Notes: a model not told the origin generated them from the sequence alone. Counted from the stretch's first letter, positions 5,623-45,346 are shown. The stretch: DNA of 64,000 nt from an uncultured Gammaproteobacteria bacterium (GCA_964531275.1 CAZHDZ010000004.1:3068-67067), one strand, 5' to 3'. Numbers and translations are program-made.

Positions 5623-5703
5623 ATTTTTTTATAGCGTTTAGTTATTAGCGTTTAGCGTATAGTTAATGTTAACTAAACCCTAAACCCTTCTTCATCTATA
5701 CCC

Positions 5704-7612: not shown

Positions 7613-8257
7613 TTACTTCTTATTGATCCAAACTTTTACTCCAATGTATCCGCTCTTTGTAAGTGATGGTACGCTTGCAAAATCAATATTCTCACGAATA
7701 GTTGAAAGTGAAACTTTTCCAACTTGAGATCTTTCACGTCTTCCAATTTCTGCTCCATTGATTCTTCCTGAAAGAATTATTCTTGCTCCTTTTGCACCAG
7801 ATTGCATCATGCGATCTAATGACTGCTTTACGACTCTTTTAAATGGCATTCTTCGTGCTAACTGATCTGCAATATTTGTTGCAACCAAGTATGCGGAAAG
7901 GTTAGGCTCCTTGATCGGCTCGACCCTTAACTCAATCTTTTGAGACGACTTACCAGTTGCACCAGGCTCTACCAAAAGTTTGACGATTTCCTTCTTAAGC
8001 TCTTCAAGTCCACTTCCCCCACGTCCTATGACAATTCCAGGTCTCATAACATAAATAATGATCTTAATTGAACTTGCTGATCTTTCAGTAATAACATCTC
8101 CAACACCAGCTGGCTTCAACCTCTTCATAAGAGCCTCGCGGATCATAATATCCTTAAGAACAGTCTTTGCGTACATATTCTTTGGATAATATCCAATACT
8201 CTTAAAATCGTGGTGTATACCAAGACGTAGGGCTATTGGATTAACTTTTTGTCCCAT
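7613..8257 (-). CDS. rpsC: 30S ribosomal protein S3
   Basis: MGQKVNPIALRLGI N-terminus and KH domain. Confidence 0.93.
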   Translation of the reverse strand: MGQKVNPIALRLGIHHDFKSIGYYPKNMYAKTVLKDIMIREALMKRLKPAGVGDVITERSASSIKIIIYVMRPGIVIGRGGSGLEELKKEIVKLLVEPGATGKSSQKIELRVEPIKEPNLSAYLVATNIADQLARRMPFKRVVKQSLDRMMQSGAKGARIILSGRINGAEIGRRERSQVGKVSLSTIRENIDFASVPSLTKSGYIGVKVWINKK

Positions 8258-8303
8258 GTTGTTTTATTTAAAACAAGCTTCACTTAGCGTAGCCAAGTTC
8301 TAC

Positions 8304-20365: not shown

Positions 20366-20989
20366 ATGGCAGAAGACACACCTCAAAACGAATCCTTTTT
20401 AAATCCCTCAAGACGCTCTTACGTTTATGAGTCTTCTAAAGGTTCCGGCAACAAAAAAAGAGTAATACTTATTATATTAGGGGTTATTGTGCTTGTAGCA
20501 CTTGTAGCATATGCAGTTATTGCTACTGGCGGAAAAGGAGAATTAGAAGAAGCACTAACTCCTACCCCAACAACAATTCAAGAAACCCCAACTCCAACAA
20601 TTGCTGAAGCAACGCCTACTCCCGAAGTTTCACCAACTCCAACCGGCAAGACTTCTCCCACTCCTTCAAAGGGAACACCCACACCCACCAAAACTTCAGG
20701 ATCTGACCTAGAAAAATCCAATCTGAGCCTTGAAGTATTAAATGGAAGTGGCGTTGCGGGCGCTGCAACAAAAATGTCAGATATACTAAAAAAGCTTGGG
20801 TATGAAGTTGCATCTTCGGGGAATGCTGATAACTTCGAATATGAAAAGACAGAAATTCAACTTAAGAGTACTAAAAAGGCCTATCTTCAAACGCTTAAAG
20901 ACGACTTGGGAGACGACTACACCATTGGTAGTGCAACTTCAGACTACACAGGGGATGCTGATGGCGTTGTCATTGTTGGAAAAGAATAA
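20366..20989 (+). CDS. LytR C-terminal (LytR_C) domain protein with TM anchor and PT-rich linker
   Basis: N-terminal TM helix, a (TPTPT)n linker and a C-terminal LEVLNGSGVAGAATKMSDILKKLGYEV typical of the LytR_C domain. Confidence 0.6.
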   Translation: MAEDTPQNESFLNPSRRSYVYESSKGSGNKKRVILIILGVIVLVALVAYAVIATGGKGELEEALTPTPTTIQETPTPTIAEATPTPEVSPTPTGKTSPTPSKGTPTPTKTSGSDLEKSNLSLEVLNGSGVAGAATKMSDILKKLGYEVASSGNADNFEYEKTEIQLKSTKKAYLQTLKDDLGDDYTIGSATSDYTGDADGVVIVGKE

Positions 20990-20992
20990 GCA

Positions 20993-21113
20993 GGCTTGGC
21001 TGCGCTAAGCAAGCTTGGCTTCGCTAAGAACCTGCTACGCAGAACCTTGGCTGCGCTAAACAGAGTTTGGCTGCGCTAAGAACCTGCTACGCAGAACCTT
21101 GGCTGCGCTAAAC
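20993..21113. repeat. Tandem REP-like repeat array (core CTTGGC[T/t]GCGCTAA[G]; two about 51-bp tandem copies at 21013..21063 and 21064..21114)
   Basis: Direct reading shows 4-5 copies of the core. It contains GCGNAGC/GCTNCGC mini-hairpin motifs. It is the reverse complement of the array at 23253..23400. Confidence 0.8.
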
Positions 21114-21389
21114 TTAAGACGCCGCCTCAATAAAAAATTCTGGAGCCTGATTACCTTCCGAAATAATAAGTGGCTGATTAGTACTAAGGATATTTGGGGC
21201 AACAGCCGGAAGTACATCAAGGGACTCTCCTCTAATTAAAGGAGTACCATCTCCACTCATGCCACGACTTGCCATTCTTTCTGCTTGCCAAATGGCTTCT
21301 TGTTCTGCCATTCTAGCTTCATATCGTGCAGTTCTTTCGTGAAAAAGCTCTAGCGGGTAGGGACCTGTAGGGTTTGTTTCGTGAGCCAA
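21114..21389 (-). CDS. Hypothetical small protein (atypical Ala/Arg/Glu/Pro-rich composition)
   Basis: 91-aa ORF. Its local GC is visibly higher than its surroundings. Its coding status is uncertain. Confidence 0.3.
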   Translation of the reverse strand: MAHETNPTGPYPLELFHERTARYEARMAEQEAIWQAERMASRGMSGDGTPLIRGESLDVLPAVAPNILSTNQPLIISEGNQAPEFFIEAAS

Positions 21390-21471
21390 ATTATGATTTT
21401 ATACCATAAAAAACTCATATGTGTAAAGTGCCAAAAATAATAGTAACTAAGGTATAATTAAGTACGCTCAT

Positions 21472-23241
21472 ATGAAAAATATTGGAAAAATAATTAAGCT
21501 TTCAAAACCGCTTCATCCACTTGTTGTAATCATTGCAATTCTTATTATAGTGAGCTCAGCTCTTCAGCTGGCGACGCCACTTTTCTCCAAATTCATAGTC
21601 GATGAAATAGTTGCTCATCTGGATAACCAATCTGGAGATCTCAATAAGCTAATTACCCTTATTGTGGTTGCTTTTCTTCTTAATGTAATAGGAGTCATAA
21701 CAAATGTAATTACCGATAGACTTGGTGACCATTTTGCGGGTAGACTCCGCCAATTTCTCACCGAAAGGTTCTATGACAAAGTACTCACCCTTCCTCAAAG
21801 TTACTTTGATGGACAGCTTTCAGGAAAAATCATCAATCAACTAAACCGTGGGATAGTAACTGTTTATAGCTTTTTAAATGGTGCCTCAAATTTTATCATC
21901 CCCATGTTCTTGCAAAGCATATTCACAGTTGCTGTGCTTGCCTACTACAACATTCCCATTGCCTTCTTTACTTTTATTTTATTCCCTATTTATTTAATAC
22001 TTTCCTATTATTCGACGGTAAGGTGGGGCAAAGAAGAGGCTAAGAAAAATGCAATCGAGGATGTAACCAGAGGAAGAATTAATGAGGTAATTTCAAACAT
22101 CAGACTGGTTAAGGGGTTCACTCAAGAAAAAAACGAATACAGAATGGTGTCTGACGGGCTTACGAAAATTAATGAAATCTTTGCTAAGCAGAGCTCAACA
22201 TATCATAAATTTGATTTAGCTCGCAACATGTCTCTTATTCTTGTCATGTTCGCAATCAATATATTAGTTTTTTACAACACTTTCATAGGAGTGCTTACTA
22301 TTGGAGAAATGGTATTAATACTACAGCTGTTTAACCAAGCAAGAGTGCCTCTTTTTGCGATGTCATTTATCCTCACTCAAGTACAGCAGGCTGAGCAGGG
22401 TAGTAAAGAATATCTTGAAATTTTACACCTAGATTCTGCAGAAAATTACAAAGAAGGAGGCAGATTTGTTGCAATCAACAATCCATCAATTGAATTTAAG
22501 AATATATCTTTTAAATACGAAGAGTCGGAAAATGTACTCAATGACGTTTCCTTTAAGATCTTACCTCATGAAAAAGTAGCTCTGGTAGGCCATAGTGGAG
22601 CCGGAAAATCTACGATTGTGAACCTTATCATGAAGCTTTATACACCCACATCTGGAGATATCCTGCTAAAAGATAAGAAATACTCATCCTTATCTCACAA
22701 AGCTGTACGAGATAATATCTCTCTTGTCTTTCAGGAAAACGAGCTTTTCTCATCAACAGTTCGTGAGAATGTCGCCTATGGCAAACCTGATGCAACGGAT
22801 AAGGAAGTTATAAATGCTTTAAAATCTGCAAATGCCTATGAATTTGTTATGAAATTTTCCAAGGGATTAGACAGTGAAATTGGAGAACGTGGAGTCAGGC
22901 TATCGGGAGGCCAAAAGCAGAGAATCCAAATTGCTCGAGCCATTCTTCGAAATTCTCCAATACTTATCCTTGACGAAGCGACTTCCTCCTTGGATGCAAA
23001 AAGTGAGTTTGAAGTCCAACAAGCATTGGAAGTCTTAATGAAAAACAGACTCACAATAATTATTGCTCATAGATTCTCGACCATTCAAAATGTAGACAAA
23101 ATAATCGTTATTGAAGACGGAATGATCTCAAACTATGGAACGCCACATGAACTTTCATCGCAAAAAGGGTTGTACTCTGAATTATTAAAATATCAAATAG
23201 AAGGTAACCAAAAACTTCTCGACCAATTTGGTTTACATTAG
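21472..23241 (+). CDS. ABC transporter, fused permease/ATP-binding protein (MsbA/exporter type)
   Basis: Six N-terminal TM helices. Walker A GHSGAGKST, signature LSGGQKQRIQIARA, Walker B ILILDEATSSLD and an H-loop. Confidence 0.88.
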   Translation: MKNIGKIIKLSKPLHPLVVIIAILIIVSSALQLATPLFSKFIVDEIVAHLDNQSGDLNKLITLIVVAFLLNVIGVITNVITDRLGDHFAGRLRQFLTERFYDKVLTLPQSYFDGQLSGKIINQLNRGIVTVYSFLNGASNFIIPMFLQSIFTVAVLAYYNIPIAFFTFILFPIYLILSYYSTVRWGKEEAKKNAIEDVTRGRINEVISNIRLVKGFTQEKNEYRMVSDGLTKINEIFAKQSSTYHKFDLARNMSLILVMFAINILVFYNTFIGVLTIGEMVLILQLFNQARVPLFAMSFILTQVQQAEQGSKEYLEILHLDSAENYKEGGRFVAINNPSIEFKNISFKYEESENVLNDVSFKILPHEKVALVGHSGAGKSTIVNLIMKLYTPTSGDILLKDKKYSSLSHKAVRDNISLVFQENELFSSTVRENVAYGKPDATDKEVINALKSANAYEFVMKFSKGLDSEIGERGVRLSGGQKQRIQIARAILRNSPILILDEATSSLDAKSEFEVQQALEVLMKNRLTIIIAHRFSTIQNVDKIIVIEDGMISNYGTPHELSSQKGLYSELLKYQIEGNQKLLDQFGLH

Positions 23242-23252
23242 TTCAGGCCAAT

Positions 23253-23400
23253 TTAGCGAAGCCAAGGTTCTGCGAAGCAGGTTCTTAGCGAAGCCAAGCT
23301 TGCTTAGCGAAGCCAAGCTTGCTTAGCGAAGCCAAGGTTCTGCGAAGCAGGTTCTTAGCGAAGCCAAGGTTCTGCGAAGCAGGTTCTTAGCGAAGCCAAG
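23253..23400. repeat. Tandem REP-like repeat array (32-nt unit TTAGCGAAGCCAAGGTTCTGCGAAGCAGGTTC, with 19-nt short variants)
   Basis: Six copies of the core TTAGCGAAGCCAAG. Each 32-nt unit carries two GCGAAGC mini-hairpin motifs. It is the reverse complement of the left array at 20993..21113. A 10-bp perfect palindrome AATTAGCCTA-C-TAGGCTAATT follows at 23430..23450. Confidence 0.8.
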
Positions 23401-23439
23401 GTTGCTGTCAAGCAAGCTTAACGCAGTCAAATTAGCCTA

Positions 23440-24720
23440 CTAGGCTAATTTATACCCTCTCGTCTTCACCGTAACAATTTCGTAATCTGAATGAGAGTTT
23501 TTTAGTTTGCCTCTCAATCTCGCTACGAGTCTGTCGACAGCCCAATCAGATACTCCATATGCAGCTGCCTCAGGCCATACACATTCAATTATTTTCTCCC
23601 GTTCACAAAGCGCTCCTCTGTTTTCTTCAAGAATTTTTAGTAGCAAGTGCTCCTTCTTAGATAACTCATGCCTTGTAGAATCCTTTGCAACTTCGCCTTT
23701 ATTTTGTAAATATCGCTCAAAAAGTCTACTAAATACACCCACCTCAGAAAGTATTCCCGTATTCCATAGGTAGTTTGCTCTATCTTTTTCGTCCGGGCCT
23801 ATTTGTTTATTCTTTATGAACCTTAAAAGAACATCTTGCTCCTCAGAAGATAACGATTCCCACAACTCCTCTGACTGAAGAGCAATTCTCTCATCGAAAA
23901 ATAATTCATCCTCAATATTTTGGGCTGAAAAACCATTTTTCTTTTCGTGAAGATAGGAAAGCGAGAACTGAAGATATTGAGTATACCCATCAACAAGTTC
24001 AAGGACTTTTGATTTTATGTTTTCAGGAAAATTGAGGTTGTATCTTCTGCATATCTCATCAAAAACAATTATAGAATCTTCCTTCCTACTTGGAGCTATA
24101 TACATTGTCCTGGCAAATACTGACACTGAGGCTCTTGTAAATACGTCAGGAGACAATGACTCAAGGCTTCTAACACTGGTTATGACATATGATAAATTTT
24201 TATGACTTGCATCAATGAGACCTTGAAGGTTTGCAAAGAATTCAGGAGTTACAACATTTTGCATCCTATCAAATCTTAAGAAGAAAATAGTCGGAGACAC
24301 ATCTTCTCCTACAAGCTTAACTAGGCTTTTTCTAATTGAATCAATTGTGAGAAAAAGATCCTGTGACTGAATACTATCCAAAAAGAGCGCTTCTATATAT
24401 CTCTTAGTCTCTTCTGAGACATTTGAAGCCATAACATTGTCCTCGATTCTTTTAAGGGTAAGCACCCAGAATGGATATAATTCACGTTCAACCAGATCGT
24501 TTAGATCAACGGGTATAAATAGATGGTTTTTATTATCGCCAATATATCGTTTTGCTATACCTTGCTTATTGAGGAAAAAACGGAGGAAATTACTAATTCC
24601 CACCCGCTTCATACCAACCAAGACAACGCTATTTCTATTCTTTATGTAAAGCCCAAGACTTTCTGCATCTTTTTTTCTGAATGACAGGGGATAAACAACT
24701 TCTTCAATTCGGCTTTCCAT
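23440..24720 (-). CDS. Transcriptional regulator: N-terminal degenerate P-loop/STAND-like domain fused to C-terminal OmpR/PhoB-type winged helix
   Basis: The C-terminal 70 aa (CEREKIIECVWPEAAAYGVSDWAVDRLVARLRGKL...VKTRGYKL) match the Trans_reg_C winged helix. The N-terminus has a degenerate Walker-A-like VVLVGMKRVGIS. There is no receiver domain. Confidence 0.6.
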   Translation of the reverse strand: MESRIEEVVYPLSFRKKDAESLGLYIKNRNSVVLVGMKRVGISNFLRFFLNKQGIAKRYIGDNKNHLFIPVDLNDLVERELYPFWVLTLKRIEDNVMASNVSEETKRYIEALFLDSIQSQDLFLTIDSIRKSLVKLVGEDVSPTIFFLRFDRMQNVVTPEFFANLQGLIDASHKNLSYVITSVRSLESLSPDVFTRASVSVFARTMYIAPSRKEDSIIVFDEICRRYNLNFPENIKSKVLELVDGYTQYLQFSLSYLHEKKNGFSAQNIEDELFFDERIALQSEELWESLSSEEQDVLLRFIKNKQIGPDEKDRANYLWNTGILSEVGVFSRLFERYLQNKGEVAKDSTRHELSKKEHLLLKILEENRGALCEREKIIECVWPEAAAYGVSDWAVDRLVARLRGKLKNSHSDYEIVTVKTRGYKLA

Positions 24721-24760
24721 TACGTGAATTTTAGTCTCGACTTCTTACAATTACAAGTTT

Positions 24761-24796
24761 TGTCAGGTAAAAGTCAGGAGGGATCATACTGTCAGG
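24761..24796. promoter_or_regulatory. Direct repeats (T/A)GTCAGG x3 in a divergent promoter region, a candidate operator
   Basis: TGTCAGG at 24761, AGTCAGG at 24772 (11-bp spacing) and TGTCAGG at 24790. They lie between the divergently transcribed regulator gene and the 24863 ORF. Confidence 0.25.
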
Positions 24797-24862
24797 AAAT
24801 TGTCCCAAATAAAGGTGCTTTAAAGTCAAGTTTTGTATTTTCTATCATACTAAACTCTTGTT

Positions 24863-25129
24863 ATGAGTCATGAAACTACAGAACCAACACTCGGCGGAGG
24901 GACAGAGGGAGTTCTTCCGCTGGGAGTTGAGGCAAATACACTAGTTATGAATCGTGGACATCCTGTTTTTTTGAATAGAATCCTGAACATATTACCATGG
25001 AGAAATTCTTCAGAGCCTATATCGCTTGCTGATACTCTTAGATCTGATATCCAAAAAGTTTCGAAACTAAATGGTGTTAATGCAGATCCCTATTGGAACG
25101 AAACAGAAAAAGGAGTACAACATAGTTAG
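24863..25129 (+). CDS. Hypothetical protein
   Basis: 88-aa ORF. It is the only ORF of 60 aa or more in an otherwise gene-free 0.7 kb. Confidence 0.3.
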   Translation: MSHETTEPTLGGGTEGVLPLGVEANTLVMNRGHPVFLNRILNILPWRNSSEPISLADTLRSDIQKVSKLNGVNADPYWNETEKGVQHS

Positions 25130-25143
25130 GTTAAATAAATTTT

Positions 25144-25566
25144 ATGAGTTGGGAAACTTCAATCGATGGCAGATTACACACTGCACTTGGTGAGCGAGTC
25201 GTGCATAATGGATCAGTTTGGATACATGAGACATACATTCAAGGCAGGCATCCACAAATAGGATCTTTGAAAGAAGGTTTAGAAGGAGAAGTAGAAACTG
25301 TCAGGAAAATCTTGCTCCCACTATCTCTTGTGGATTCGCGTATAAAAGTTAACGGTAAAAGTAACGCTTCATATACACATTTAGTGATTGATGAACACAA
25401 GCACCTGCTTGAGCACCCACAAGCAGAACCAGCTCATGAGTTGACCGTAGGAATTACGGCAGCAGTTGCACCAAGTGTTCCTACGGATAGAATGCTAGAT
25501 ATACCACTCCCTGTTCTCCCATTTTTAATTCAGTCCGCCAATTTGCAACCTGTGCCCACGTCATAA
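25144..25566 (+). CDS. Hypothetical protein
   Basis: 140-aa ORF 15 nt downstream of the previous one. Its 3-prime end overlaps the alternative minus ORF 25481..25705. Confidence 0.3.
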   Translation: MSWETSIDGRLHTALGERVVHNGSVWIHETYIQGRHPQIGSLKEGLEGEVETVRKILLPLSLVDSRIKVNGKSNASYTHLVIDEHKHLLEHPQAEPAHELTVGITAAVAPSVPTDRMLDIPLPVLPFLIQSANLQPVPTS

Positions 25567-25676
25567 CTAATTTGTTCACTTCCTCCTGAGAAAGAGCCTG
25601 AAATTTCTTCTTAACTTTACTTGGAATTTTTCTGCCATAAGCTGCTCTATACAGCATCTCAAAGGAGTAGTCACAT

Positions 25677-26822
25677 TCAATCATATTCTGAGTTATCCAT
25701 GCCATTACCCAACGATAATTGTTTGATTGTAGGAAAAGAAGACCCCATAATCCCCTCCAGCTCTCCTGCCAATTTTGCTACACTCATTTGTGCTTTTTCG
25801 ATCTGCATTTCCCGTCTTTTCCATATCCTCTCCATAGATCTTCTTTCGGAATCAAGGTCAATTCTCATCGTTTGAATACTTTCTACATATCCCTCGATCC
25901 TGTGTCTAAATGAATCACTTTGAAGATATTGGTATACCATCTCAAGCGTTTCATCTTTGCTTTCAGCAGCTGATTTCGCAGCAGCAGTTTGCATGATACC
26001 TCGCCTTACAAGAACCGCCAATGAAATGGCAAAACTATAATTAGTAACAAGCACACTTTCTATAAATCCAAAATTTTGGATATCTTTTGGCAATTCTTCA
26101 GATACCAAAATAGATGAAGTTGCACTTACTTTTCTAGCATCTTCTCGAAGCTTTGGCAACCATGCTGGAGACCATTTTGCCCTCTTTGTTTCCCAAAGAA
26201 TGGAACCTGCTACCCGACCCATAGAATTTCTGACAGTCTGGACAATATCTCCTCCCTTTGATCCTTTGGCAACCGGCTCGATTAAGTCTGTCGGAAAAGC
26301 TGCTGAAAGTTGTTCTTCCAAATCAACTTCAAGAACTTCTCCCTGAACCTGCTGACTTACTCCTGAGGCTTTACGATTTGCCTCCTCAAGCATTCTTTTA
26401 AGATTCTCTATCTGTGTCTCTTTTTCTTTTTCCTTAAATCTATGCTTTTCCTCTTCTTCTCGTACTATTTTTTCCTCTATTTTTTTCTTCTCTTCATCCA
26501 TACGTCTTTCGACATCTAACGTGATTTGCTTTTTTTCTTCTTCTACTTTTCTTTTTTCTTCTCGAAGTTCAATTTCTTTCTCACGAAATTCATCATTCTT
26601 CTTCTTTTGATCCATTAACTCTTTTTGCAACTGCTCTAAGTCCTGCGCGCTCTTTTCAGAAAATTCTTTTTTTGCTTTTTCTTCAGCTTCAGCTCTTGCT
26701 CGCTCTATGTCTTTTTTATGTACCATGTCAAATTCTGACTTTGCTTCTTCCTTCACCTGATGCAGTAATGCTTCAGAAAGTTCCATTTCTTTTCCGCAAT
26801 GCTTGCAAGTAATTGTATTCAT
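25677..26822 (-). CDS. DUF2130-like protein (N-terminal Cys zinc ribbon plus long coiled coil)
   Basis: N-terminus ITCKHCGKEMEL followed by a roughly 150-aa E/K-rich coiled coil and a conserved C-terminal domain. The architecture and N-terminus recall DUF2130. Confidence 0.55.
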   Translation of the reverse strand: MNTITCKHCGKEMELSEALLHQVKEEAKSEFDMVHKKDIERARAEAEEKAKKEFSEKSAQDLEQLQKELMDQKKKNDEFREKEIELREEKRKVEEEKKQITLDVERRMDEEKKKIEEKIVREEEEKHRFKEKEKETQIENLKRMLEEANRKASGVSQQVQGEVLEVDLEEQLSAAFPTDLIEPVAKGSKGGDIVQTVRNSMGRVAGSILWETKRAKWSPAWLPKLREDARKVSATSSILVSEELPKDIQNFGFIESVLVTNYSFAISLAVLVRRGIMQTAAAKSAAESKDETLEMVYQYLQSDSFRHRIEGYVESIQTMRIDLDSERRSMERIWKRREMQIEKAQMSVAKLAGELEGIMGSSFPTIKQLSLGNGMDNSEYD

Positions 26823-26878
26823 AAGAACGTCAGTGTACTACCCAATGAAAATACTGTCAATTAAGTTATGATAATTAA

Positions 26879-28384
26879 ATGAAAGATAAAATATTAGCAG
26901 CTCTTTGTGCCATTTACTTACTCATTACGTCCTTTAATTTAACGCTTCTTCCTATTTTCAATGATGAAAGCATCTATCTTGATTGGGGAATACGAGCAAC
27001 AACCCAGCCGGGGATGCTTTATTACTCAGTGTATGACGGCAAACCGCCTCTTATGATTTGGTTTTTTGGAATTTTTGAGCAGCTTTTGCCAGACCCGTTG
27101 TTAGCTGGACGGCTTGTTTCGATCATTTTTGGCCTTGCAACTCTTCTTGGGATCTTTTCTCTTAGTAAATTTCTTTTTGGCAAAAAAACGGCATATATAA
27201 CGAGCGTTCTTTATATATTCTCCCCGCTTATCTTTTTCTTTAATCGTCAAGCCCTTATGGAATCTGGTGTTGCTGCCACTGGAGTCTGGTCGACATATTT
27301 CTTTATTCGATTTCTAAAGTCTAATATGCCAAAGCACGCCTTCTATTCAGGTCTAATTTCAGGCATTGGACTTTTTATTAAAACCAACGCGACATTTTTT
27401 CTCATTGTGTCTCTTGTAGCAGGTACGTATAGAGCTTATAAAACTAAAAGTAGCATTACGGTAAAATCACTATTTCTCATGATTGCTGCATTTTGTGGCG
27501 GTTCAATTCTTCTTCTCATAAATCCCGACTTTTGGGCAACAATGCACCGAAATGCTCGATACGGAATGACTTTGTCTGAGCTATTACGCTTTCCTATTGG
27601 AATCTGGGCAAATAGTCTTTATATAAATAGCCTGATTTTATTAACAACCATTACACCATTTATATTAATAGCTTCTATATATGGACTTATTCAATGGAGG
27701 AAAAAATACGCCCTATTCATACTTCTCATTGTATCTCCAATCATTCTAGAGACTCTAACCGTAAGACAGCCTGTTCAGAGGTATCTCGTAAGCTATACCC
27801 CGTTACTGCTTATTCCAGCAGGATTTGTCTTTTCAAATCTTATTAATAATAAAAAACCCCTAGGCTTTATAGTCTTTCTAGTTTCCATCTTACCCGCATT
27901 ATATTTGGTGTGTTTACAGATTTTTTCACCAGTTACATACTTTCACACAACGCGCCTTGTCCCTAACATTACTGATAATGGATATATTGCAGGTCAATTA
28001 TCAGGGTACGGAGTAAATGCTCTTGTCCCCAAGATAAATGCTCTTGCAGATAAAAAAATTCTTGTAATGTTTGCTGAAAATACAGGGAATCCTGAGAGTG
28101 CAGTCAATATATATTTTGAAAAAAATAAGAATATACAGACAGGATACATGCAAAGCAGCTACTTTGGAGATCAATTAAAAAACTATACCTGCATTATTGA
28201 GAAAAATGGAACACCTATGTATTTCGTTAGTAGATCTTCATATTTAGCTGGCCTTGAAAAATTCATAACTCAAATCGATACAATCAAACTTCCTGAGTCT
28301 CAAGAGTTTATTGGGATATACAGAGTAAATAATGACTGTCCAAAAGAGAAAAGCCTTATAGTGGAGCCTGTAATGAGTCCTTAG
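26879..28384 (+). CDS. GT-C fold glycosyltransferase (ArnT/PMT-like, family GT39/GT83-like)
   Basis: 501 aa with about 11 TM helices. A DE motif in the first loop (FNDESIYLDWG), as in ArnT/PMT_2 enzymes. Confidence 0.65.
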   Translation: MKDKILAALCAIYLLITSFNLTLLPIFNDESIYLDWGIRATTQPGMLYYSVYDGKPPLMIWFFGIFEQLLPDPLLAGRLVSIIFGLATLLGIFSLSKFLFGKKTAYITSVLYIFSPLIFFFNRQALMESGVAATGVWSTYFFIRFLKSNMPKHAFYSGLISGIGLFIKTNATFFLIVSLVAGTYRAYKTKSSITVKSLFLMIAAFCGGSILLLINPDFWATMHRNARYGMTLSELLRFPIGIWANSLYINSLILLTTITPFILIASIYGLIQWRKKYALFILLIVSPIILETLTVRQPVQRYLVSYTPLLLIPAGFVFSNLINNKKPLGFIVFLVSILPALYLVCLQIFSPVTYFHTTRLVPNITDNGYIAGQLSGYGVNALVPKINALADKKILVMFAENTGNPESAVNIYFEKNKNIQTGYMQSSYFGDQLKNYTCIIEKNGTPMYFVSRSSYLAGLEKFITQIDTIKLPESQEFIGIYRVNNDCPKEKSLIVEPVMSP

Positions 28385-28731
28385 TCAACTATTTTTCCTT
28401 CGACATATTTACCATGCGAATAAGTTTCAAGAATTTTTACATTTTTAGCATTTGCTTTATAAGCTACATCAAAAATGACCCCGAGGAATGGGATAAGTCC
28501 CACGATAAAGTCAATGGCAATATTAAGAAGCATTTTTAGAAAATCTGTTTTTGAAACTCCAACTTTGTAAGCTGTGTGCAAAATAAAAAGACTAAGGAGT
28601 GTACCGATGATATCACCGACCCAAGGAATAATATTAATAATCGGATCGAGGCCAAATCGCACACCACTAATATTGAACTGTGAGTCCAATAATTTTGCGA
28701 GCATTCTAGCTGTTCGTATTCGTTTGTCCAT
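28381..28731 (-). CDS. DUF4112-like small membrane protein
   Basis: RFGLDPIINIIPWVGDIIGTLLSLFIL pattern typical of DUF4112. Two TM helices. Confidence 0.5.
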   Translation of the reverse strand: MDKRIRTARMLAKLLDSQFNISGVRFGLDPIINIIPWVGDIIGTLLSLFILHTAYKVGVSKTDFLKMLLNIAIDFIVGLIPFLGVIFDVAYKANAKNVKILETYSHGKYVEGKIVD

Positions 28732-29008
28732 TAATTAAAAAAGTGTTAATTTCAGAGAGCAGTTCGTTTTGTCCATTATCAAGCTTAGGGGACGTTGGAT
28801 CAATACCACATTCTGTAAGAAAACCATCATTAATGTTGTTAAAAATTTTGTAAAGATCGTAATCTGTAGGCAAATCCAACCCATCAAAGCTTCTACCTGA
28901 AAGAAAATAGTAGTATTGACCTTTTCTGAGGGGATGTTCCCGAAGACGTTCTTCTAATGGTTCGGCGTCCGATACTACAACAGCATTCTTAGGGATCTCG
29001 ACGTTCAT
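28706..29008 (-). CDS. Hypothetical protein
   Basis: 100-aa ORF. It overlaps the downstream gene by 26 nt. Confidence 0.35.
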   Translation of the reverse strand: MNVEIPKNAVVVSDAEPLEERLREHPLRKGQYYYFLSGRSFDGLDLPTDYDLYKIFNNINDGFLTECGIDPTSPKLDNGQNELLSEINTFLINGQTNTNS

Positions 29009-29051
29009 TTTAAAAAATATATCACAAGAAAAGTTGCTATATCAAGAAGGA

Positions 29052-29315
29052 TTATTGCCGTACGTTTTGAGGAAAACCGGCTATTAACTCTGCTAACCTT
29101 TCTGCCTCTGTGAGAGGAGGAATCTGCAACAAAGCTTCAGTTGCCTCATGATCTTTACATGCTCCAAATCTATATTCCGGCCTTTGTCCTCCTTCAGTTT
29201 TGTCTACATAATTCGTGAGAGGGGTTTCTCTTATTCTTTTCTCATAAGGTTCATATGTGCATACCCACACCTGTCCTGTCGTTGCGTCAAATGATGGAAT
29301 TTGTCTTTCTGCCAT
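29052..29315 (-). CDS. Hypothetical protein
   Basis: 87-aa ORF. No recognisable motif. Confidence 0.35.
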   Translation of the reverse strand: MAERQIPSFDATTGQVWVCTYEPYEKRIRETPLTNYVDKTEGGQRPEYRFGACKDHEATEALLQIPPLTEAERLAELIAGFPQNVRQ

Positions 29316-30753: not shown

Positions 30754-31884
30754 ATGCGCTCTCAACTGTCCAAAGTGCTTTCTGCTTTTTTGTTTGTAAT
30801 CCTTGCAATTCTTCTCATAATTAACGCTCCCGATGCGAAAGCTGCAACAGCAAATTCAGTTGTTATCTCAGAAATTCAAGTAGGTGTGGCCGGCACTGGA
30901 AACTCTACTCAAGAATTCATTGAACTTTATAATCCAACAGATTCAGATGTTAATTTAAGTAATTGGAAAATTGCTAGAAAAACACAGGGTGGCGGTTCTG
31001 ATATTCCAGTTTCCCCATTGGTAGGAGTTATAAAATCCCACGGCTATTATCTTGTAGCACACATTGATTATTCGGGTACTCCAGCCGCTGACATTGAATA
31101 CTTCGAACAAGAACCCATTGCTCCAAATAACACTATTTTGCTTTATGGTGGAGCCGATGGTACAACATTAGTAGATAAGGTGGGAATAGGAACAGCTACA
31201 GACAAAGAAGCGTCAGCTGCACCGGCCCTTACTAATAATGGAAATAGTGTAGAAAGAAAGGCTAATGCCTCCTCTACGATTGAAACCATGACAACTGGAG
31301 CCGACATGCTTATGGGCAACGGTGAAGATACTAATAATAATGCTTCTGATTTTATTATGAGGACAGTTTCAAACCCTCAAAATTCATCAAGTTCAGTTGA
31401 GCCAGTACCCACAGCTACTCCTACGTTAACAACGACACCTACTGCTACCATGACGCCAACAGCAACCCCAACAGTAACTGTTACTCCTACAGCTACTCCA
31501 ACCCCAACAATGACTGCAACCCCGACTCCAACTGCAACGATCACACCAACAATCACAATGACGCCAACAACAACACCCACGGTAACCGCTACCCCCACAG
31601 CTACCCCAACACCTACTGTGACAACCACTCCTACAGCTACAGTGACCCCAACTGTAACTGTCACACCAACCGCTACTCCAACTCCTACTGTCACAATAAC
31701 TCCAACAGCAACACCTACTCCAACTGTTACAATGACTATCACTCCAACAACAACAGTAACTCCAACTCCTATTGCTACATTCCCAACATTTAAAGTCGTT
31801 TGCACAAATAAAATTCTTAGCTTCAATATTCTCTCTATGCACTTCAGTGTGCCCCTACTTACCTGCAACGTAGTCAAACTCTAA
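30754..31884 (+). CDS. Secreted lamin-tail-domain (LTD) protein with long Thr-Pro repeat region
   Basis: Signal peptide. [38 protein letters not shown] is the LTD signature. Then about 130 aa of (TPTxT)n. A likely promoter TTGACA-16-TATAAA sits immediately upstream. Confidence 0.65.
31395..31790 (+). repeat. Coding low-complexity repeat (ACN-CCN)n encoding TPT/TVT linker
   Basis: Degenerate period of about 15-18 nt. It generates spurious antisense ORFs (VGV repeats). Confidence 0.8.
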
Positions 31885-35535: not shown

Positions 35536-36501
35536 CTAGACAATCTCTACTTCCACTTCAGGGGTGAATCCGAAGGATTCTTGCATCTCTTCTTCAATTT
35601 CAGCAATTATTGATTTCACGTCCTGAGCCTTTGCTCCTCCCATATTTACGATAAAATTCTGATGCTTCTCGCTTACCTTTGCAGCGCCTACCTGTTTTCC
35701 TTTAAAACCGAGTCTATCAATTATGTAACCCATGCTTACTTTTCCATGCCATTTACCATCCACCAATTCTCGAATATCACTCCAAGACTCTAAAATTCTA
35801 TCAACCTCTTCCTTTTTTGAAATATTCTTAAATACACTTCCACAATTTGGATAATCCAGTGGGTGCTTGTCTTGACGATAAGTTATATTTTCAAAATATT
35901 TCTCGTGCGCATTTAGCAATTCTTCTTGAGTCCCGTCACGCAGACGAAATTGAGCTGATATAACGATTAACTTTTCTTTCTTAACTTTACTTGAGCGATA
36001 CTCAAATTCCATCTCATCATGATTTAAAGTAAGTTCTTCATAACTTCCGTCCTCCTGCAGTCTTATGCAATGTGCTTTTACAAAAACATCTTTTATCTCG
36101 CCTCCAAAAGCTCCTACATTTCCTCGTACTGCAGCACCAACCGTACCCGGAAGTCCTCCCGCCCATTCAAGACCCACAAGGCCTAATTCAAATTGTGCTT
36201 GGATTACACTATCAAGAAATTCTCCTGCAAAGCTTTCGATTAATCCATTTTCCAAAAATCTTACACCCTGCCCATCATCTTGAGACTGAAATCTAATAAC
36301 AACCCCATCAAAACCCTCATCCGGAAAAAGAAGGTTTGATCCAAGGCCTAGTACAAAGACATTGGTAATATTATTTTGCTTTATATAGGAAAGTGCTTCG
36401 TAGACATCTTCTTTTGAAGCCACATCGATAACAATTTTGGCTACACCACCAATTTGATACCAGAGAATAGTTGAGAGTAGAACGTTATTGTAAATTTGCA
36501 T
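35536..36501 (-). CDS. murB: UDP-N-acetylenolpyruvoylglucosamine reductase
   Basis: FAD-binding N-terminal domain (VLGLGSNLL) and C-terminal NCGSVFKN motif of MurB. Confidence 0.85.
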   Translation of the reverse strand: MQIYNNVLLSTILWYQIGGVAKIVIDVASKEDVYEALSYIKQNNITNVFVLGLGSNLLFPDEGFDGVVIRFQSQDDGQGVRFLENGLIESFAGEFLDSVIQAQFELGLVGLEWAGGLPGTVGAAVRGNVGAFGGEIKDVFVKAHCIRLQEDGSYEELTLNHDEMEFEYRSSKVKKEKLIVISAQFRLRDGTQEELLNAHEKYFENITYRQDKHPLDYPNCGSVFKNISKKEEVDRILESWSDIRELVDGKWHGKVSMGYIIDRLGFKGKQVGAAKVSEKHQNFIVNMGGAKAQDVKSIIAEIEEEMQESFGFTPEVEVEIV

Positions 36502-38269
36502 CTGCTACGTCGTCCTCGGAAAGTCTGAGGAGCCCTTCATCGAGCCTTTTTTGATCGAGGTAATGGGCAATAAATCCGACTGAACGAGACAATACGAATA
36601 GAGCATTAAAGAACTCTTGCTCAATTAATTCATAGAGCTGCTCATCACTATATCCTTCTTTCTCTGAGAGATAATCCAAAAGAAGGGCCGCAATCGTACC
36701 ATCAACATTGAGTATTAAATTTCCTTTTTTCTCAGTTGTAACTTTTTCAACCTCAAGAGCAAAAGTCGTAAATCTTTTTGTACTTAACCTATCCAAAAAA
36801 ACCTTTAGTGCTGCTACTCTTGGATCAGGCATGTCCGTTCTGTATTTCTTGTGTCCAATTCCCTGAATATATTGTTTTTTAACGGCAAATTCTTCAACGT
36901 AAGAGGATGCATTTTTACCGTCAACAACCCCCGAGAACCAGTTGCGGGCAGCCTCATTGAGAGCTCCTCCAAAGCGAGGACCTATTGTCAAAAGCCCAGA
37001 GGATAATGAACTAACAAGATCTTTACCAGCACGAGCACTTACTATAGTATTAAGTGCACCTGATACATATGGTCCGTGATCTACGCTTATCTTTAAAATA
37101 AAATCTACTAACTCTTCAGTGTCTTGAGACTGGATTTTTTTGCCTAAGAACATTGAAGCAATTATCTTAGGAAATCCATTATTATTTGCAAAACTAAGCA
37201 AGTCTTCACCTAGCACCTGGACTTCCCCATCAACATCTTTTGAAATACTTGATGAAATTAATGCGTGTTTTCGATCGTCCATATTTTCAATTGTACCATT
37301 GGACTTATCAAAGCCAAAGTCTGAAAGATTTTGTATCATCTTAACAAATTCAGAAAAACTCTCAGGCACTTGTGCCCCCGCCTTCTTAAGTGCTTCTCTT
37401 TTTTCTTTTGCACCTTCAGCACGAGTCCCTGCCATAGCTTTTGCATGACCAAATTGCGGCGGGGTCTCAAAGAGATCCGAAATAGTACCTGCTACATAAC
37501 AAATTACCGGCTTTGTAATATGTCCTACTTCTAATAGCTTTGCTAATTTGTATTCATCCTCACCACCAAGCTCCCCATAATAAACAATGGCTTTCGTTGC
37601 ATCATCTTTTTGCGCTGCCATGAGTGCATCTACTGGCTCAAAGAGCGGAAATCTATCTCCCCCAAAAGATAAAGAGAAACTTACCTTGTTATGTGTCCTG
37701 TTAACAGTATTTATAATCTCGTTAACCATCCCACCGGATGCAGAAAGCACACAAACTCCCCCTGAGGAAAGTAAGCCAGAACTTATTATTTGTTTTTGAC
37801 TAACTCCACCAATAGCACCCACCTTAAAACTACCCGGAACCACTAACCCCACACTTGAAGGGCCAATGATTGACACATTTTTGCTCTTGGCATACTCAAA
37901 GAGTTCTATGGCGTGTTTTTCAGGAACTCCCTCTGCAAAAACAGTCCCAAATATAAGCTTAGGAAGCGTATTCATTGCCTCAATCATCGATGTAAGCACT
38001 CTTCTTCCAGAACTCACATTAAGCACTGTATTTATCTGACCCTTAAATGCTTGTGGAAGACGATTTAAAGTAGGGTAGACTGGCAACAAAATTTCCTTCT
38101 TGCCAAAAAAGTATCTATTAAAATTTCTCCCATTGGCAACAATTGCAATAATTGATGGGGAAGTACGACCTATCAAGAAATCGTAATCAAGCATTGACTG
38201 AATAATCCCAGCATGATTGCCAATAACTACTATCTTTAATGATGTCTCTCTCAGTTTTTGTATATCCAT
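36485..38269 (-). CDS. aclA: ATP-citrate lyase, large subunit (CoA-ligase alpha-like plus citrate-synthase-like domain)
   Basis: QFGHAKAMAG catalytic-His loop, ISVDHGPYVSGALNTIVSARAGKDLVSSLSSGLLTIGPRFGGA, GIGHKKY, LILNVDG and GFIAHYLDQKRL. These align closely with the C-terminal two thirds of ACLY. Confidence 0.85.
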   Translation of the reverse strand: MDIQKLRETSLKIVVIGNHAGIIQSMLDYDFLIGRTSPSIIAIVANGRNFNRYFFGKKEILLPVYPTLNRLPQAFKGQINTVLNVSSGRRVLTSMIEAMNTLPKLIFGTVFAEGVPEKHAIELFEYAKSKNVSIIGPSSVGLVVPGSFKVGAIGGVSQKQIISSGLLSSGGVCVLSASGGMVNEIINTVNRTHNKVSFSLSFGGDRFPLFEPVDALMAAQKDDATKAIVYYGELGGEDEYKLAKLLEVGHITKPVICYVAGTISDLFETPPQFGHAKAMAGTRAEGAKEKREALKKAGAQVPESFSEFVKMIQNLSDFGFDKSNGTIENMDDRKHALISSSISKDVDGEVQVLGEDLLSFANNNGFPKIIASMFLGKKIQSQDTEELVDFILKISVDHGPYVSGALNTIVSARAGKDLVSSLSSGLLTIGPRFGGALNEAARNWFSGVVDGKNASSYVEEFAVKKQYIQGIGHKKYRTDMPDPRVAALKVFLDRLSTKRFTTFALEVEKVTTEKKGNLILNVDGTIAALLLDYLSEKEGYSDEQLYELIEQEFFNALFVLSRSVGFIAHYLDQKRLDEGLLRLSEDDVADANLQ

Positions 38270-38335
38270 ATCTATTTAAAATCCAAATTCAAAACTCCAA
38301 TTTTCAAATGATCATTGGTACTTGATCATTGGTCC

Positions 38336-39520
38336 TTATTTTACCCACTCGAGGGCGGGTTCTACTATATCAGTAAGTATCAACTCTGGACCATGAATCT
38401 CTCCCAACAATTCAGTCTTTTCTAAGAAAGCTTTCATCATAGAAAGCCCTTCTTCCTGATGAGGACCTCCACGTCTTACAAAAATTTTCACATTTTGAGA
38501 TTTCAAATCCGTTGATACCTCTCCCAACGCTCGAATAATGCCTTTAAAAGTTATTCTAACGTCCGTAAAATTCGCCACACCCCCAGAAATAATGATTGAT
38601 TTATTATGGGATGTAGAGCGGAGTAGGGCAGTCAAAATATTCTTAACATACAGATAGGTCTCTTCTTCTGTAGGACTTCCACTATATTCACCATAATTAG
38701 CAAGTAAATCCCCTTTTCCCTTTTGGTAAATTTCATCAGCAGTCACCAAAGACGCCCCTCCTCCTGAAAGCAGGACAAAAATAGAGCCATTTGGATTAAG
38801 GACTTGATAACTCAGTGCTGCTGGAGTTGTTTCTTTTAATGCTTCTATCGCTTTTTCTTCTTCTGTTTTAACTTTCTTACTTCCCTCACGAAAATCATCC
38901 TTACTCCATGCACCTTCTACAAAGAATGCTGCTTCGCTATCTACTTCAACTGCTGTGTCTAAGAAATAAAATGTATCGTCTTTTACAACCAATGGATTGA
39001 TCTCTAAAAATGAAAAATAATACTCATCAAATGCAGTAATGATACTTTCAAGGGTTTCAACAGAGATTTTTAATGTAGTGGCAATATCTTTGTACTGTGA
39101 GTATCCAGTTAAAATTGATGAAGTAACAGAGTCTTTATTAGATTCAATTTCTATTCCACCTTGAGCTGAATAATGAACCATCTTGCCTTCTCGTACCCGC
39201 TCGATTGCAAAGTAAAATTCTCCACCTTCATGCTCAACAAACTCCTCCAAAATAAAATAGTTAAAGCCTTTTTCCTTTAACTTTTCTATTTCAGCCTTAA
39301 CATTTGTCCTATTTACATCAAGCACTACAAGCCCATTTTTCTTTCTCTGCTTTACACCCTGATCAACCTTCAGAACATATCGTATACCCTCTTCCATCTT
39401 TGAAAGTAGGTCTTCTACGTAATCATCATTTGTATTAATAGTAATACCTTTATAGGGAAGCTCTAAGAAAGAATACAATATTCTTTTTGCTGCAAATTCG
39501 GAGATTTTTTTCCTAGCCAT
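38336..39520 (-). CDS. aclB: ATP-citrate lyase, small subunit (ATP-grasp, succinyl-CoA-synthetase beta-like)
   Basis: YFSFLEINPLVV, LNPNGSIFVLLSGGGASLV, ANYGEYSGSPTEEETY, GGVANFTDVRITFKGIIRA and FVRRGGPHQEEGL. These match the N-terminal ACLY/AclB consensus almost block for block. Confidence 0.85.
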   Translation of the reverse strand: MARKKISEFAAKRILYSFLELPYKGITINTNDDYVEDLLSKMEEGIRYVLKVDQGVKQRKKNGLVVLDVNRTNVKAEIEKLKEKGFNYFILEEFVEHEGGEFYFAIERVREGKMVHYSAQGGIEIESNKDSVTSSILTGYSQYKDIATTLKISVETLESIITAFDEYYFSFLEINPLVVKDDTFYFLDTAVEVDSEAAFFVEGAWSKDDFREGSKKVKTEEEKAIEALKETTPAALSYQVLNPNGSIFVLLSGGGASLVTADEIYQKGKGDLLANYGEYSGSPTEEETYLYVKNILTALLRSTSHNKSIIISGGVANFTDVRITFKGIIRALGEVSTDLKSQNVKIFVRRGGPHQEEGLSMMKAFLEKTELLGEIHGPELILTDIVEPALEWVK

Positions 39521-43991: not shown

Positions 43992-44120
43992 AGCCCGAGA
44001 TTATACCAAGGAATATTAAAAAAATAAACTATAGGTTAGTGAACTTCTTGATCCTTTCTCGAGTTCATAATCGGATAACGCGAGTTGCAAACTCGAATTA
44101 GGCGAGTATATACTACTTGC

Positions 44121-44429
44121 ATGGCCAACGTAATCCAGACATGTACTACCTGCTCTAATCAATTTCTTGTAATAGACCAGGAGCAAGCTTTTCTCCGTCA
44201 AAAAGGCTTACCAAATCCAACAAATTGCCCAAAGTGCCGTCAGGCTAGACGGCTTAAGCTTCGAGGAGAAAGAGTGCTTTACAAAACAGACTGTCAACAA
44301 TGCGGAAAGGAAATTGTGGTTTCGTACGACCCATCCAAAGTTACAAATAAAATACTTTGTAAAGAAGATTACGAAAAGTATTATGAAGAGCATGACCCAA
44401 TGATCACAGATCCCCTACCACAACTATGA
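44121..44429 (+). CDS. Zinc-ribbon protein (paired CxxC motifs)
   Basis: CTTCSN..17..CPKCRQ and a second pair ..CQQCGK..C. The ATG is at 44121 and the track ORF starts at TTG 44085. It overlaps the next gene with ATGA. Confidence 0.45.
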   Translation: MANVIQTCTTCSNQFLVIDQEQAFLRQKGLPNPTNCPKCRQARRLKLRGERVLYKTDCQQCGKEIVVSYDPSKVTNKILCKEDYEKYYEEHDPMITDPLPQL

Positions 44430-45346
44430 CAGCCGACACATTTTTTCTCGAATTACAAAAACTCATCACTCAGCAGCCGAAAAGACCTTCAAATACATTA
44501 AATTCCGAAGATTGCAAATATACAAATTTCGTCTATTACAGTACGGAGCTTACTAACTGCTTTGACTGTACTAATTCAACAAATGGAATATATCTTTATG
44601 ACTCTCACAACTGTGCAAATTGTGCTGATATGAATTTTTCCTTTGAGACAGAACTTTCCTATGAATGTGTAGACGCCTTTAAATGTTTTAATTGCAGCTA
44701 CATTGATGATTGTGGCAACATGACTGATTCTGACTTTAGCACCTGGTGCCTCAACTGCCATGATGTATTTGGTTGCTTTAAGCTCAAAAATAAATCGTTC
44801 TGCATATTTAACAGACAATTTACGGAAGAGGAATATCACGAAAAAGTAAAATATCTCAAGACTCTTCCTCCAGAGAAAATCCTTGCTGAGGTTGAAAAAA
44901 TAGCACTAACTCACCCCATAACTCAGACTAATGAGCATGATAATGAAAATTCAAGCTTCGGCAATTACATTTACTTTTGTAAAAATTGCTATCTCTGCTT
45001 TGATTCGACACACAATCAAGATTGTGGATACACGTATGACTCTAGCTATAATTCTAATTCTTTTGATATCTTACAGTCGGGCAATTCAGAACTATCCTAT
45101 CAAGTTTCAGATTCAGGTCAGATCTTTAATTCTGCATATGTCTTGTGGTCAAAGAATTGTCAGGACAGCATGTATCTTATTGATTGCCTGGACGTTAAAA
45201 ATTCAATGGGATGTGTTGCACTAAGCCACAAAGAGTATTGCTTCTTAAATCGACAACTTTCAAAAGAGGAATATGAAGCAATTACAAAACCATTACGTGA
45301 AGAATTAAAAACAAAATACTTCGAGTGGGGCAACTTAATCTACTAA
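44426..45346 (+). CDS. Cysteine-rich repeat protein (internal duplication; 24 Cys)
   Basis: Repeats of about 20-25 aa carry CxxC/CxNC pairs. Two halves end in similar modules (KNKSFCIFNRQFTEEEYHEKVKYL versus SHKEYCFLNRQLSKEEYEAITKPL). Confidence 0.5.
   Translation: MTADTFFLELQKLITQQPKRPSNTLNSEDCKYTNFVYYSTELTNCFDCTNSTNGIYLYDSHNCANCADMNFSFETELSYECVDAFKCFNCSYIDDCGNMTDSDFSTWCLNCHDVFGCFKLKNKSFCIFNRQFTEEEYHEKVKYLKTLPPEKILAEVEKIALTHPITQTNEHDNENSSFGNYIYFCKNCYLCFDSTHNQDCGYTYDSSYNSNSFDILQSGNSELSYQVSDSGQIFNSAYVLWSKNCQDSMYLIDCLDVKNSMGCVALSHKEYCFLNRQLSKEEYEAITKPLREELKTKYFEWGNLIY

Follow-up and report, generated by a model that had tools for sequence, protein, structure and literature searches.

Two arrays of short hairpin repeats, which bracket 2.1 kb in a 64-kb stretch of DNA (CAZHDZ010000004.1:3068-67067; this whole stretch is called the window), are very probably local clusters of a dispersed, GC-rich hairpin repeat family that occupies short intergenic gaps in a narrow sub-clade of Levybacteria. 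Going by the names of its homologs, the window's organism is a member of Candidatus Levybacteria, in the Patescibacteria or Candidate Phyla Radiation (CPR) group. The reading we favor, and consider reasonably probable, is that the arrays are lineage-restricted hairpin repeats akin to repetitive extragenic palindromic (REP) sequences and bacterial interspersed mosaic elements (BIMEs), which duplicate locally and would serve as RNA stem-loops at gene ends. Our confidence in any specific mechanism that spreads the modules to new loci is low. An earlier note on this DNA had proposed that the arrays border a cassette holding a fused ATP-binding cassette (ABC) exporter and a 91-aa open reading frame (ORF91). 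Throughout, L-numbers denote contigs or loci of relatives compared with the window.

Within each array all units point one way, head-to-tail, and they are copies of two small modules. Module A is 15 nt long and reads CTTAGC-GNA-GCCAAG on one strand (the GNA strand) and CTTGGC-TNC-GCTAAG on the other; its stem contains a fixed mismatch, which is A.C when read on the GNA strand but G.U when read on the complement. Module B comprises 18 nt (GTTCTGC-GNA-GCAGGTTC, with the core (T)CTGC-GNA-GCAG(G)), while a third module, C (GCGTAAAC-GAA-GTTTGCGC), was found in L007 and L008. The stems of A, B, and C are unrelated, yet all three present a C-GNA-G triloop on the same strand.

The left array fills the gap between the stop codons of a LytR_C-domain gene (20987-20989) and ORF91 (21114-21116). 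Its A units (CTTGGCTNCGCTAAG) lie at 20995, 21014, 21046, 21066, and 21098 and its B units (AACCTGCTACGCAGAACC) at 21029 and 21081, giving the minus-strand order A(GCA)-B(GTA)-A(GCA)-linker-A(GCA)-B(GTA)-A(GAA)-linker-A(GCA). The right array begins 10 nt past the ABC stop codon, with A units (TTAGCGAAGCCAAG) at 23252/3, 23284, 23303, 23322, 23354, and 23386 and B units at 23266, 23336, and 23368. Six copies of a 32-nt unit had been described for it; there are indeed six A units, although the 32-nt period does not extend to all of them, the array being made of three 32-nt A-B units and three 19-nt A-only units. Tandem Repeats Finder gave periods of 19 and 52 nt for the left array and 32, 51, and 70 nt for the right. 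As the earlier note had described, the arrays are reverse complements of one another (74 nt at 95% complementarity), sit at convergent gene junctions (LytR_C/ORF91 on the left, ABC/regulator on the right), and carry GCGNAGC in every unit: the motif occurs in all 11 A and 5 B array units, and also in a solitary A unit, with N being A, C, or T.

The A core, with up to three mismatches allowed, has 13 matches in the window where 0.86 are expected; the B core has five where 0.01 are expected. GCGNAGC itself has 27 matches against 10.4 expected; the repeat loci hold the whole excess, and the remaining 10 are at chance level. General usage of GNA-triloop hairpins in the window was considered and rejected, there being no excess of GNA loops among its 97 perfect triloop hairpins. 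The solitary unit lies within the S10 operon, whose mRNA at this point reads CUUGGCUACGCUAAG; most of the relatives fetched have no unit there, the stop of L22 touching or overlapping the start of S3.

Units occur at a minimum of 10 unrelated intergenic sites in at least five genomes, and every copy is intergenic. There are three unit loci in the window and at least four at contig ends in the metagenome-assembled genome (MAG) CAZEEU, and a two-unit pattern search of a genome collection returned seven stretches in three other MAGs, four of the seven at contig ends. Identical 32-nt A-B units are found in different genomes. The genes next to dispersed units are diverse, including lepA with murJ, rpmG, rpsU with ybeY, and genes for a DsbD-like thiol-disulfide protein, an xerC/D-like recombinase, a PAP2 protein, and a PKD-domain protein; the ABC exporter is at none of these sites. 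The earlier note had itself allowed that the repeat might recur at unrelated loci with no link to a cassette, and this is essentially what was found (lepA, rpmG, rpsU/ybeY, and others). An all-against-all comparison of flanks of 400 nt on either side revealed no common body, the flanks being unrelated apart from those of orthologous junctions.

The range of the family appears to be narrow. No units were present in approximately 130 kb of relatives with 90-93% identical S3 (L019-L036), nor in approximately 50 kb of L010-L013, and viral contigs, phage records, and plasmid records gave no family match. Rfam returned nothing at gathering score across the window and nothing at E <= 1 in 20800-23600, and full-text searches of a collection of papers turned up no account of repeats of this kind in CPR bacteria; to the extent that these sources were checked, the earlier note's remark that this unit belongs to no described repeat family stands. 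Two of four metagenome matches, L014 and L015, proved to be unrelated pentapeptide-repeat genes of high-GC organisms, and are false positives because CTTAGCGGAGCCAAC encodes LSGAN with a 15-nt period. In a third metagenome contig, of 47% GC, a variant 18-nt array (L016:735-795; three copies of ATTAGCGGAGCCAAGCTA, loop GGA) lies beside what to the eye resembles a tRNA gene; this array, perhaps related to the A unit at a greater distance, is not counted in the family. L001-L007, from MAGs CAZEEU, CAZEGF, and CAZDED, are titled 'uncultured Gammaproteobacteria bacterium', and their loci have 36-44% GC. Because of this GC content, and since they have the repeat in common with Levybacteria contigs only, that label may be wrong.

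The contents of orthologous junctions bear directly on the idea of a cassette. The order LytR_C, ABC (plus strand), regulator (minus strand) and the orientation of ABC are constant in L008, L010-L013, and L017, with arrays or without. At the ABC-regulator junction, L008 (ABC 93.5% identical in amino acids) carries A-B-A, that is, two A units and one B, plus other hairpins, and L017 (75.6% identity) carries three A units with different spacers. The same junction is free of units in L010 and L011 (ABC 85%), where it measures 0 nt, and in L012 and L013 (83%), where it measures 27 nt. At the left junction, relatives have either no gap or no units, and L008 and L017 carry the right array only. Because of these contents, the right array is seen as an old, variably filled site and the left array as specific to the window's lineage. 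The orthologous junctions indicate that the two arrays filled neighboring convergent junctions independently, and that they do not delimit, mobilize, or invert the ABC gene.

That inverted arrays should mark the borders of a mobile or invertible ABC-exporter cassette is an attractive notion, given that these near-complementary arrays bracket 2.1 kb such that RecA-mediated inversion is possible in principle, and that the content between LytR_C and ABC varies among relatives (carAB or a small ORF). Against this stand the conservation of ABC, which keeps its synteny and its orientation in every relative, unit-free ones among them; the possession of the right array alone by L008 and L017; an independent contig, L018, with the same left-junction arrangement; the many unit loci without an ABC gene; and the host-like third-codon-position GC (GC3) of ORF91. 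We regard such a cassette as highly improbable and already largely refuted. Two possibilities raised in the earlier note fell with it: that the arrays are recombination substrates mobilizing the cassette, as ABC is syntenic even in several relatives without any units, and that the 2.1-kb segment might be absent or inverted in relatives, as ABC is present in the same place and orientation in all six of those compared above.

Several comparisons show the arrays changing in length, both between relatives and between assemblies of one and the same population. In L018, both flanks of the left array are 100% identical to the window, and the array is exactly one 52-nt period shorter. L037 is 100% identical to window positions 23374-29142 (5.8 kb) and terminates within the right array, and the contig of L009 likewise terminates within an array. 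Both L018 and L037 were located through exact look-ups of the ORF91 and regulator proteins, while exact look-ups of the window's ABC, S3, and LytR_C proteins returned no record. The 100% matches of these two contigs, which carry array sequence, show that the arrays exist and are no assembly artifact, a concern raised in the earlier note; exactly how many copies they hold is uncertain or polymorphic. A single junction, ABC-regulator, holds six A and three B units in the window and two A and one B plus other hairpins in L008.

Duplication can also involve neighboring DNA. For instance, a 29-nt direct repeat, 100% identical, lies on either side of an approximately 125-nt segment with a two-unit A array in L004 (6058-6086 and 6213-6241). 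This repeat is promoter-like (TTGAAA-17 nt-TATAAT in the downstream copy) and lies just upstream of rpsU-ybeY. In L006, diverged lepA 3'-end fragments (1343-1402 and 1429-1510; 92% and 83% identical) adjoin an A-B array at the contig end, and in L002 (73-165), from the same MAG, an A-B array at the contig start is followed by intact lepA. The two contigs are probably adjacent, with the array running across, which would imply repeated duplication of the lepA 3' end along with the hairpins. In L017, each repeated unit includes the regulator 3' end. These cases indicate that clusters grow and shrink by local tandem duplication, at times with adjacent unique DNA. Both the tandem duplications and the inverted ones, such as the palindrome at the regulator stop, may come about when replication slips or switches template at the hairpins.

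The units themselves hardly vary, and nearly all of the variation falls on the middle base of the loop. In 37 A units taken from 10 loci, this base (N, position 8) is an A 16 times, a T 14 times, and a C 7 times, while positions 2, 3, 6, and 9-14 are constant; 13 B units vary at the loop N only. Between the window and L008, A-B-A is 96% identical and differs at N only, and the array tail (23401-23439) is 92% identical to that of L008. Third codon positions of the window's ABC gene are 57% identical to those of L008 and 41% to those of L017. Conservation above the level of ABC third positions argues that the units are under sequence-level purifying selection or were recently copied.

An RNA role is suggested by folding and by strand usage. 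As RNA, the arrays fold with z = -3.9 (right) and -2.5 (left) on the CUUGGC...GCUAAG strand, and with z = -1.75 (right) and -0.4 (left) on the GNA strand; a single A unit reaches -7.5 kcal/mol on the former versus -3.2 kcal/mol on the latter. A-B-A can form a single long, nested hairpin whose internal loops are symmetric. The mRNA strand is CUUGGC...GCUAAG in all four co-directional contexts (window 8283, two L004 sites, and L007) and in two of three one-sided contexts. In the favored reading, the strand reading CUUGGCUNCGCUAAG would, once transcribed, form stable stem-loops or one long A-B-A nested hairpin. Such structures at 3' ends and between cistrons would most likely limit exonuclease decay or read-through between packed genes. 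The earlier note had listed REP-like bidirectional terminators or insulators among its options, and this comes closest to the evidence in so far as dispersed REP-like hairpins are concerned; intrinsic termination is not supported, as no U-tract follows the stems on either strand and a terminator scan called nothing at either array. Other convergent pairs in the window and relatives abut or overlap with no hairpin in between, and on account of such hairpin-free pairs the elements are dispensable. They are probably tolerated or mildly useful, and not essential.

A number of observations weigh against the RNA role, which we put forward tentatively, at slightly short of even chances. The evidence on which strand matters is mixed. 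The orientation bias comes from at most seven informative sites and is confounded with replication direction. For modules B and C, opposite to A, the GNA strand is the one with slightly better pairing, owing to U.G wobble. Energy folds under-weight a DNA-level role because nearest-neighbor models miss the stability of d(GCGNAGC) (PMC13037366). As the stems never vary, they show no compensatory covariation, and structure consequently draws its support solely from the loop type shared across the three stems. Finally, a protein that recognizes the sequence, or a master element copied recently, would account for conservation far above neutral, the fixed mismatch included, no less well than a generic RNA stem-loop does.

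These last points invite comparison with a true REP system, in which hairpins would be copied as single-stranded DNA (ssDNA) by a REP-associated tyrosine transposase (RAYT, or TnpA_REP) or another histidine-hydrophobe-histidine (HUH) enzyme encoded elsewhere, the mismatch and GNA loop being what is recognized. Not only are both arms and the A.C mismatch conserved far beyond neutral expectation, with the same 32-nt A-B unit across genomes, but a stem mismatch is needed for TnpA_REP activity in E. coli REPs (PMC8266576), REP clusters are known to reiterate in tandem with flanking DNA (PMC3733652), and the long A-B-A hairpin resembles a REPIN, the REP doublet that forms a hairpin. What such a system ought to bring with it is harder to find. 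REP stems are flanked by a conserved GTAG (or CGTC) tetranucleotide (PMC3733652, PMC8266576), whereas here the tag or its complement lies within 7 nt outside the unit in 2 of 37 units, at chance level, and GTAG within units appears solely inside the loop, when N = T. Head-to-tail units are a rare configuration in REPs (PMC3733652), the units are shorter than typical REPs, and no RAYT, Y1, or HUH transposase was found among proteins scanned from the 64-kb window or the annotated ORFs of approximately 40 kb around other arrays, which amount to approximately 10% of a genome. We consider a true REP/REPIN system unlikely. We are similarly doubtful that A, B, and C are cis-elements of an as yet undescribed ssDNA hairpin system in CPR, whose sequence-specific enzyme or binding protein, of HUH type or other, would recognize C-GNA-G hairpins by their fixed stem mismatch as well and copy them between loci and genomes. 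Were this the case, it would be a tag-less, head-to-tail counterpart of REP/RAYT that recognizes the d(GCGNAGC) fold, and would explain identical units in spite of near-saturated synonymous sites, variation at N only, and a loop type shared on one strand by unrelated stems.

A different possibility is that the C-GNA-G mini-hairpins (d(CTTAGCGAAGCCAAG), for example) act on transient ssDNA, as priming or single-stranded DNA-binding protein (SSB)-exclusion signals, replication pause sites, or nuclease-resistant caps. The three stems sharing C-GNA-G on one strand, with only N varying, fit the known stability of d(GCGNAGC) for any N (melting temperature 70-76 C), RNA versions being much weaker, and hairpins of this sort are known from the phage G4 origin and from ssiA priming sites (PMC13037366). 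Nearest-neighbor models, which are known to miss this stability (PMC13037366), assign the DNA hairpins only -2 to -3 kcal/mol. Nonetheless, the GNA strand is inconsistent in the window (plus for the solitary unit and right array, minus for the left array), GCGNAGC is not enriched outside the family, and the A.C mismatch weakens the GNA-strand A hairpin beyond its first two G-C pairs. The elements are also missing from close relatives, so that a DNA-level role cannot be essential. All told, action on ssDNA strikes us as a poor prospect. Poorer still is the suggestion that a DNA-binding protein occupies the arrays as tandem sites, in the manner of a centromere or as the operator of the winged-helix regulator (Trans_reg_C) whose gene adjoins the right array. 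The short palindromes are regularly spaced, with 19- and 32-nt periods, and sequence is conserved and not structure alone. Arrays at gene 3' ends are not at promoters, however; units lie at many loci unrelated to the regulator, as single copies even inside an operon, and unit-free relatives have regulator orthologs. This reading we hold to be very improbable.

Table 1. Repeat features of the window and the genes next to the two arrays (A and B, repeat modules)
Feature	Coordinates	Strand	Remarks
Solitary A unit (CTTAGCGTAGCCAAG, loop GTA)	8283..8297	+	In the 46-nt spacer between rplV (L22, 8304-8729, -) and rpsC (S3, 7613-8257, -), S10 operon
LytR_C-domain gene	20366..20989	+	Convergent with ORF91 across the left array; syntenic in relatives
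Left array	20993..21113	- (GNA orientation)	5 A + 2 B units
ORF91 (91 aa)	21114..21389	-	TTG start, no Shine-Dalgarno sequence
Fused ABC exporter (ABC_membrane + ABC_tran), MsbA-like	21472..23241	+	Without C39 peptidase domain
Right array	23252..23406	+	6 A + 3 B units, order A-B-A-A-A-B-A-B-A, every loop GAA
Degenerate right-array tail	23407..23431	+	Decayed A-like unit (TTTGACTGCGTTAAG, - strand, 23417-23431), a 3-mismatch match
Perfect palindrome AAATTAGCCTA-C-TAGGCTAATTT	23429..23451	.	11-bp arms, central C; regulator stop codon at 23440-23442
Regulator: AAA-like N-terminal region + OmpR/PhoB-type winged helix (Trans_reg_C)	23440..24720	-	Convergent with ABC across the right array; syntenic in relatives

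Among the genes around the arrays (Table 1), the one for the ABC exporter is a conserved core gene of Levybacteria, judged by its full-length orthologs, which number more than 100 at 69-94% identity. Its best named model is MsbA, with a score below that model's cutoff. A bacteriocin exporter was considered and rejected, as alignment to such exporters begins past the N-terminal peptidase domain, the C39 domain being missing. The earlier note had also suggested a search of ORF91 against bacteriocin and export loci; among 1.84 billion representative proteins ORF91 matched itself and gave one weak 31-residue match. It also weakly matches a 93-aa ORF of L011 in the same position and orientation, with E = 1e-4 for a single comparison. 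The earlier note had called ORF91 compositionally atypical, which is correct for its amino-acid content and incorrect for GC3; GC at its three codon positions is 0.60/0.48/0.27, the last being like that of neighboring genes, which argues against foreign cargo. A carA or carB remnant is contradicted by the lack of nucleotide and protein similarity alike, and decayed repeat units by closest matches that carry at least seven mismatches. ORF91 is probably a small resident gene that evolves rapidly, as opposed to cargo derived from the repeats.

The slot between LytR_C and ABC (window 20990-21471; L008:5571-9862; L012:4532-8823; L010:8377-8722) displays a presence/absence polymorphism. It is filled by carB-carA, encoding carbamoyl-phosphate synthase, in L008, L012, and L013, and by a minus-strand ORF of approximately 91-93 aa in the window and in L010 and L011. 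At the far side of the right array, the perfect palindrome over the regulator stop codon is as the earlier note had it save for the arms, which are of 11 bp instead of 10. The final codons and the stop of the regulator make up one arm, and the other arm repeats those 11 nt in inverted form; the palindrome is imperfect in L008 and absent from L017, L010, and L012.

A second hairpin-repeat family, unrelated to the first, is also present. It consists of tandem heptamers in imperfect inversion, (TAGGGTT)n ... (CTAAACG)n, in which a G.G/C.C mismatch is fixed, and is found at window positions 5632-5688 and 54427-54475, the two copies having opposite orientations relative to transcription, and at L034:605-675, L019:5431-5461, and L021:2114-2144. 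Its sites are ribosomal and RNA-polymerase intra-operon junctions (L24-L5, rpoC-S12, L22-S3, and L3-L4), and in L034 it occupies the L22-S3 junction, where the window has the solitary A unit.

Elsewhere in the window, two neighboring genes (36485-39520) resemble those for ATP-citrate lyase subunits (Citrate_bind plus ATP-grasp; CoA-ligase plus citrate-synthase C-terminal domain), a pair unexpected for a reduced CPR genome. A 774-aa protein encoded at 45343-47667 has HerA/DUF87 and TraG/TrwB-type coupling-protein domains, and the locus could be what is left of a system for conjugation or DNA translocation; small genes of no assigned function (44085-45346), one with a treble-clef zinc finger, follow it. 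Imperfect 36- to 42-nt coding repeats lie at 31456-31771 within a gene for a lamin-tail-domain protein (30754-31884); by our own translation they are Thr/Pro-rich, and the orthologs vary in length from 315 to 376 aa.

The genomes of CPR/Patescibacteria are small and tightly packed, a setting for which interspersed repeat families were not found in the literature searched. Here, at least two hairpin repeat families occupy gaps that are otherwise 0-30 nt long, even within ribosomal-protein operons, with sequences conserved far beyond neutral sites. Such repeats are useful as lineage markers on a fine scale, and the family described provides a compact case of a palindromic repeat that has spread without an obvious transposase, together with a possible natural role for the d(GCGNAGC) mini-hairpin. 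There is a practical side as well: arrays of this kind break short-read MAG contigs, and copy numbers in such assemblies are not to be trusted. In addition, a tempting misreading of the locus as a mobile exporter cassette is removed.

Several known kinds of element can be set aside. A remnant of a MITE (a miniature transposable element with inverted repeats), another suggestion of the earlier note, does not match the unrelated flanks between loci, which have no shared body, terminal inverted repeats, or target-site duplications; the direct repeats at arrays (approximately 13, 29, and approximately 80 nt) are widely unequal and part of the tandemly repeated unit. A CRISPR array would have unique spacers, where A units are separated by B repeats or 4-5-nt linkers. 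DNA-uptake sequences are contradicted by a density that is far too low, by all copies being intergenic, and by GCGNAGC being unenriched outside the family. Integron attC or Xer sites came to mind as the L007 array abuts an xerC/D-like gene; that array sits at the 3' end of the gene, and the remaining loci lack a recombinase. Rho-independent terminators are likewise GC-rich stem-loops right after stop codons, convergent pairs included, but the family's stems have no T-run behind them, and one copy resides inside an essential operon.

Other systems offer closer parallels. The BOX elements of Streptococcus pneumoniae and STAR elements of Staphylococcus aureus are modular (A/B/C-type) or GC-rich short intergenic repeats in low-GC genomes, and like the family here they have tandemly reiterated modules and variable copy number between strains. 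BOX and STAR have no linked transposase, and none was found here among the proteins scanned from the window and the loci flanking other arrays. There is no sequence relationship between them, and the present modules are much shorter, each being a triloop hairpin. The d(GCGNAGC) motif of Hirao and colleagues (PMC13037366) is contained in every A and B unit, where N is the sole freely variable position. That motif denotes a biophysical structure and no family of repeats. In the units it lies within longer stems, where it may form in vivo, and the better-folding RNA strand of A is its complement.

REPs of Proteobacteria, which typically number tens to hundreds of copies per genome, and their BIME clusters provide the closest template. 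Both they and the present family are short, GC-rich, imperfect palindromes with a conserved stem mismatch, intergenic and mostly just past stop codons, occurring as singletons and as clusters that are reiterated in tandem with flanking DNA. In both, distribution is patchy, copy number varies between close relatives, and short-read assemblies are broken. The family differs in residing in a reduced CPR genome at a seemingly low density (three loci in 64 kb), in its units of 15-19 nt compared with the usual 20-50 nt, in the tag, and in an arrangement that is not of alternating REP and inverted REP. The likeness of A-B-A to a REPIN doublet arises because each unit is itself palindromic; an inverted doublet separated by a spacer is missing from the family, and a RAYT was not identified in the window or near other arrays. 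In essence, while it fails as REP sensu stricto on tag and arrangement, the family is, by its sequence features, a tag-less, head-to-tail variant of REP-like hairpin repeats.

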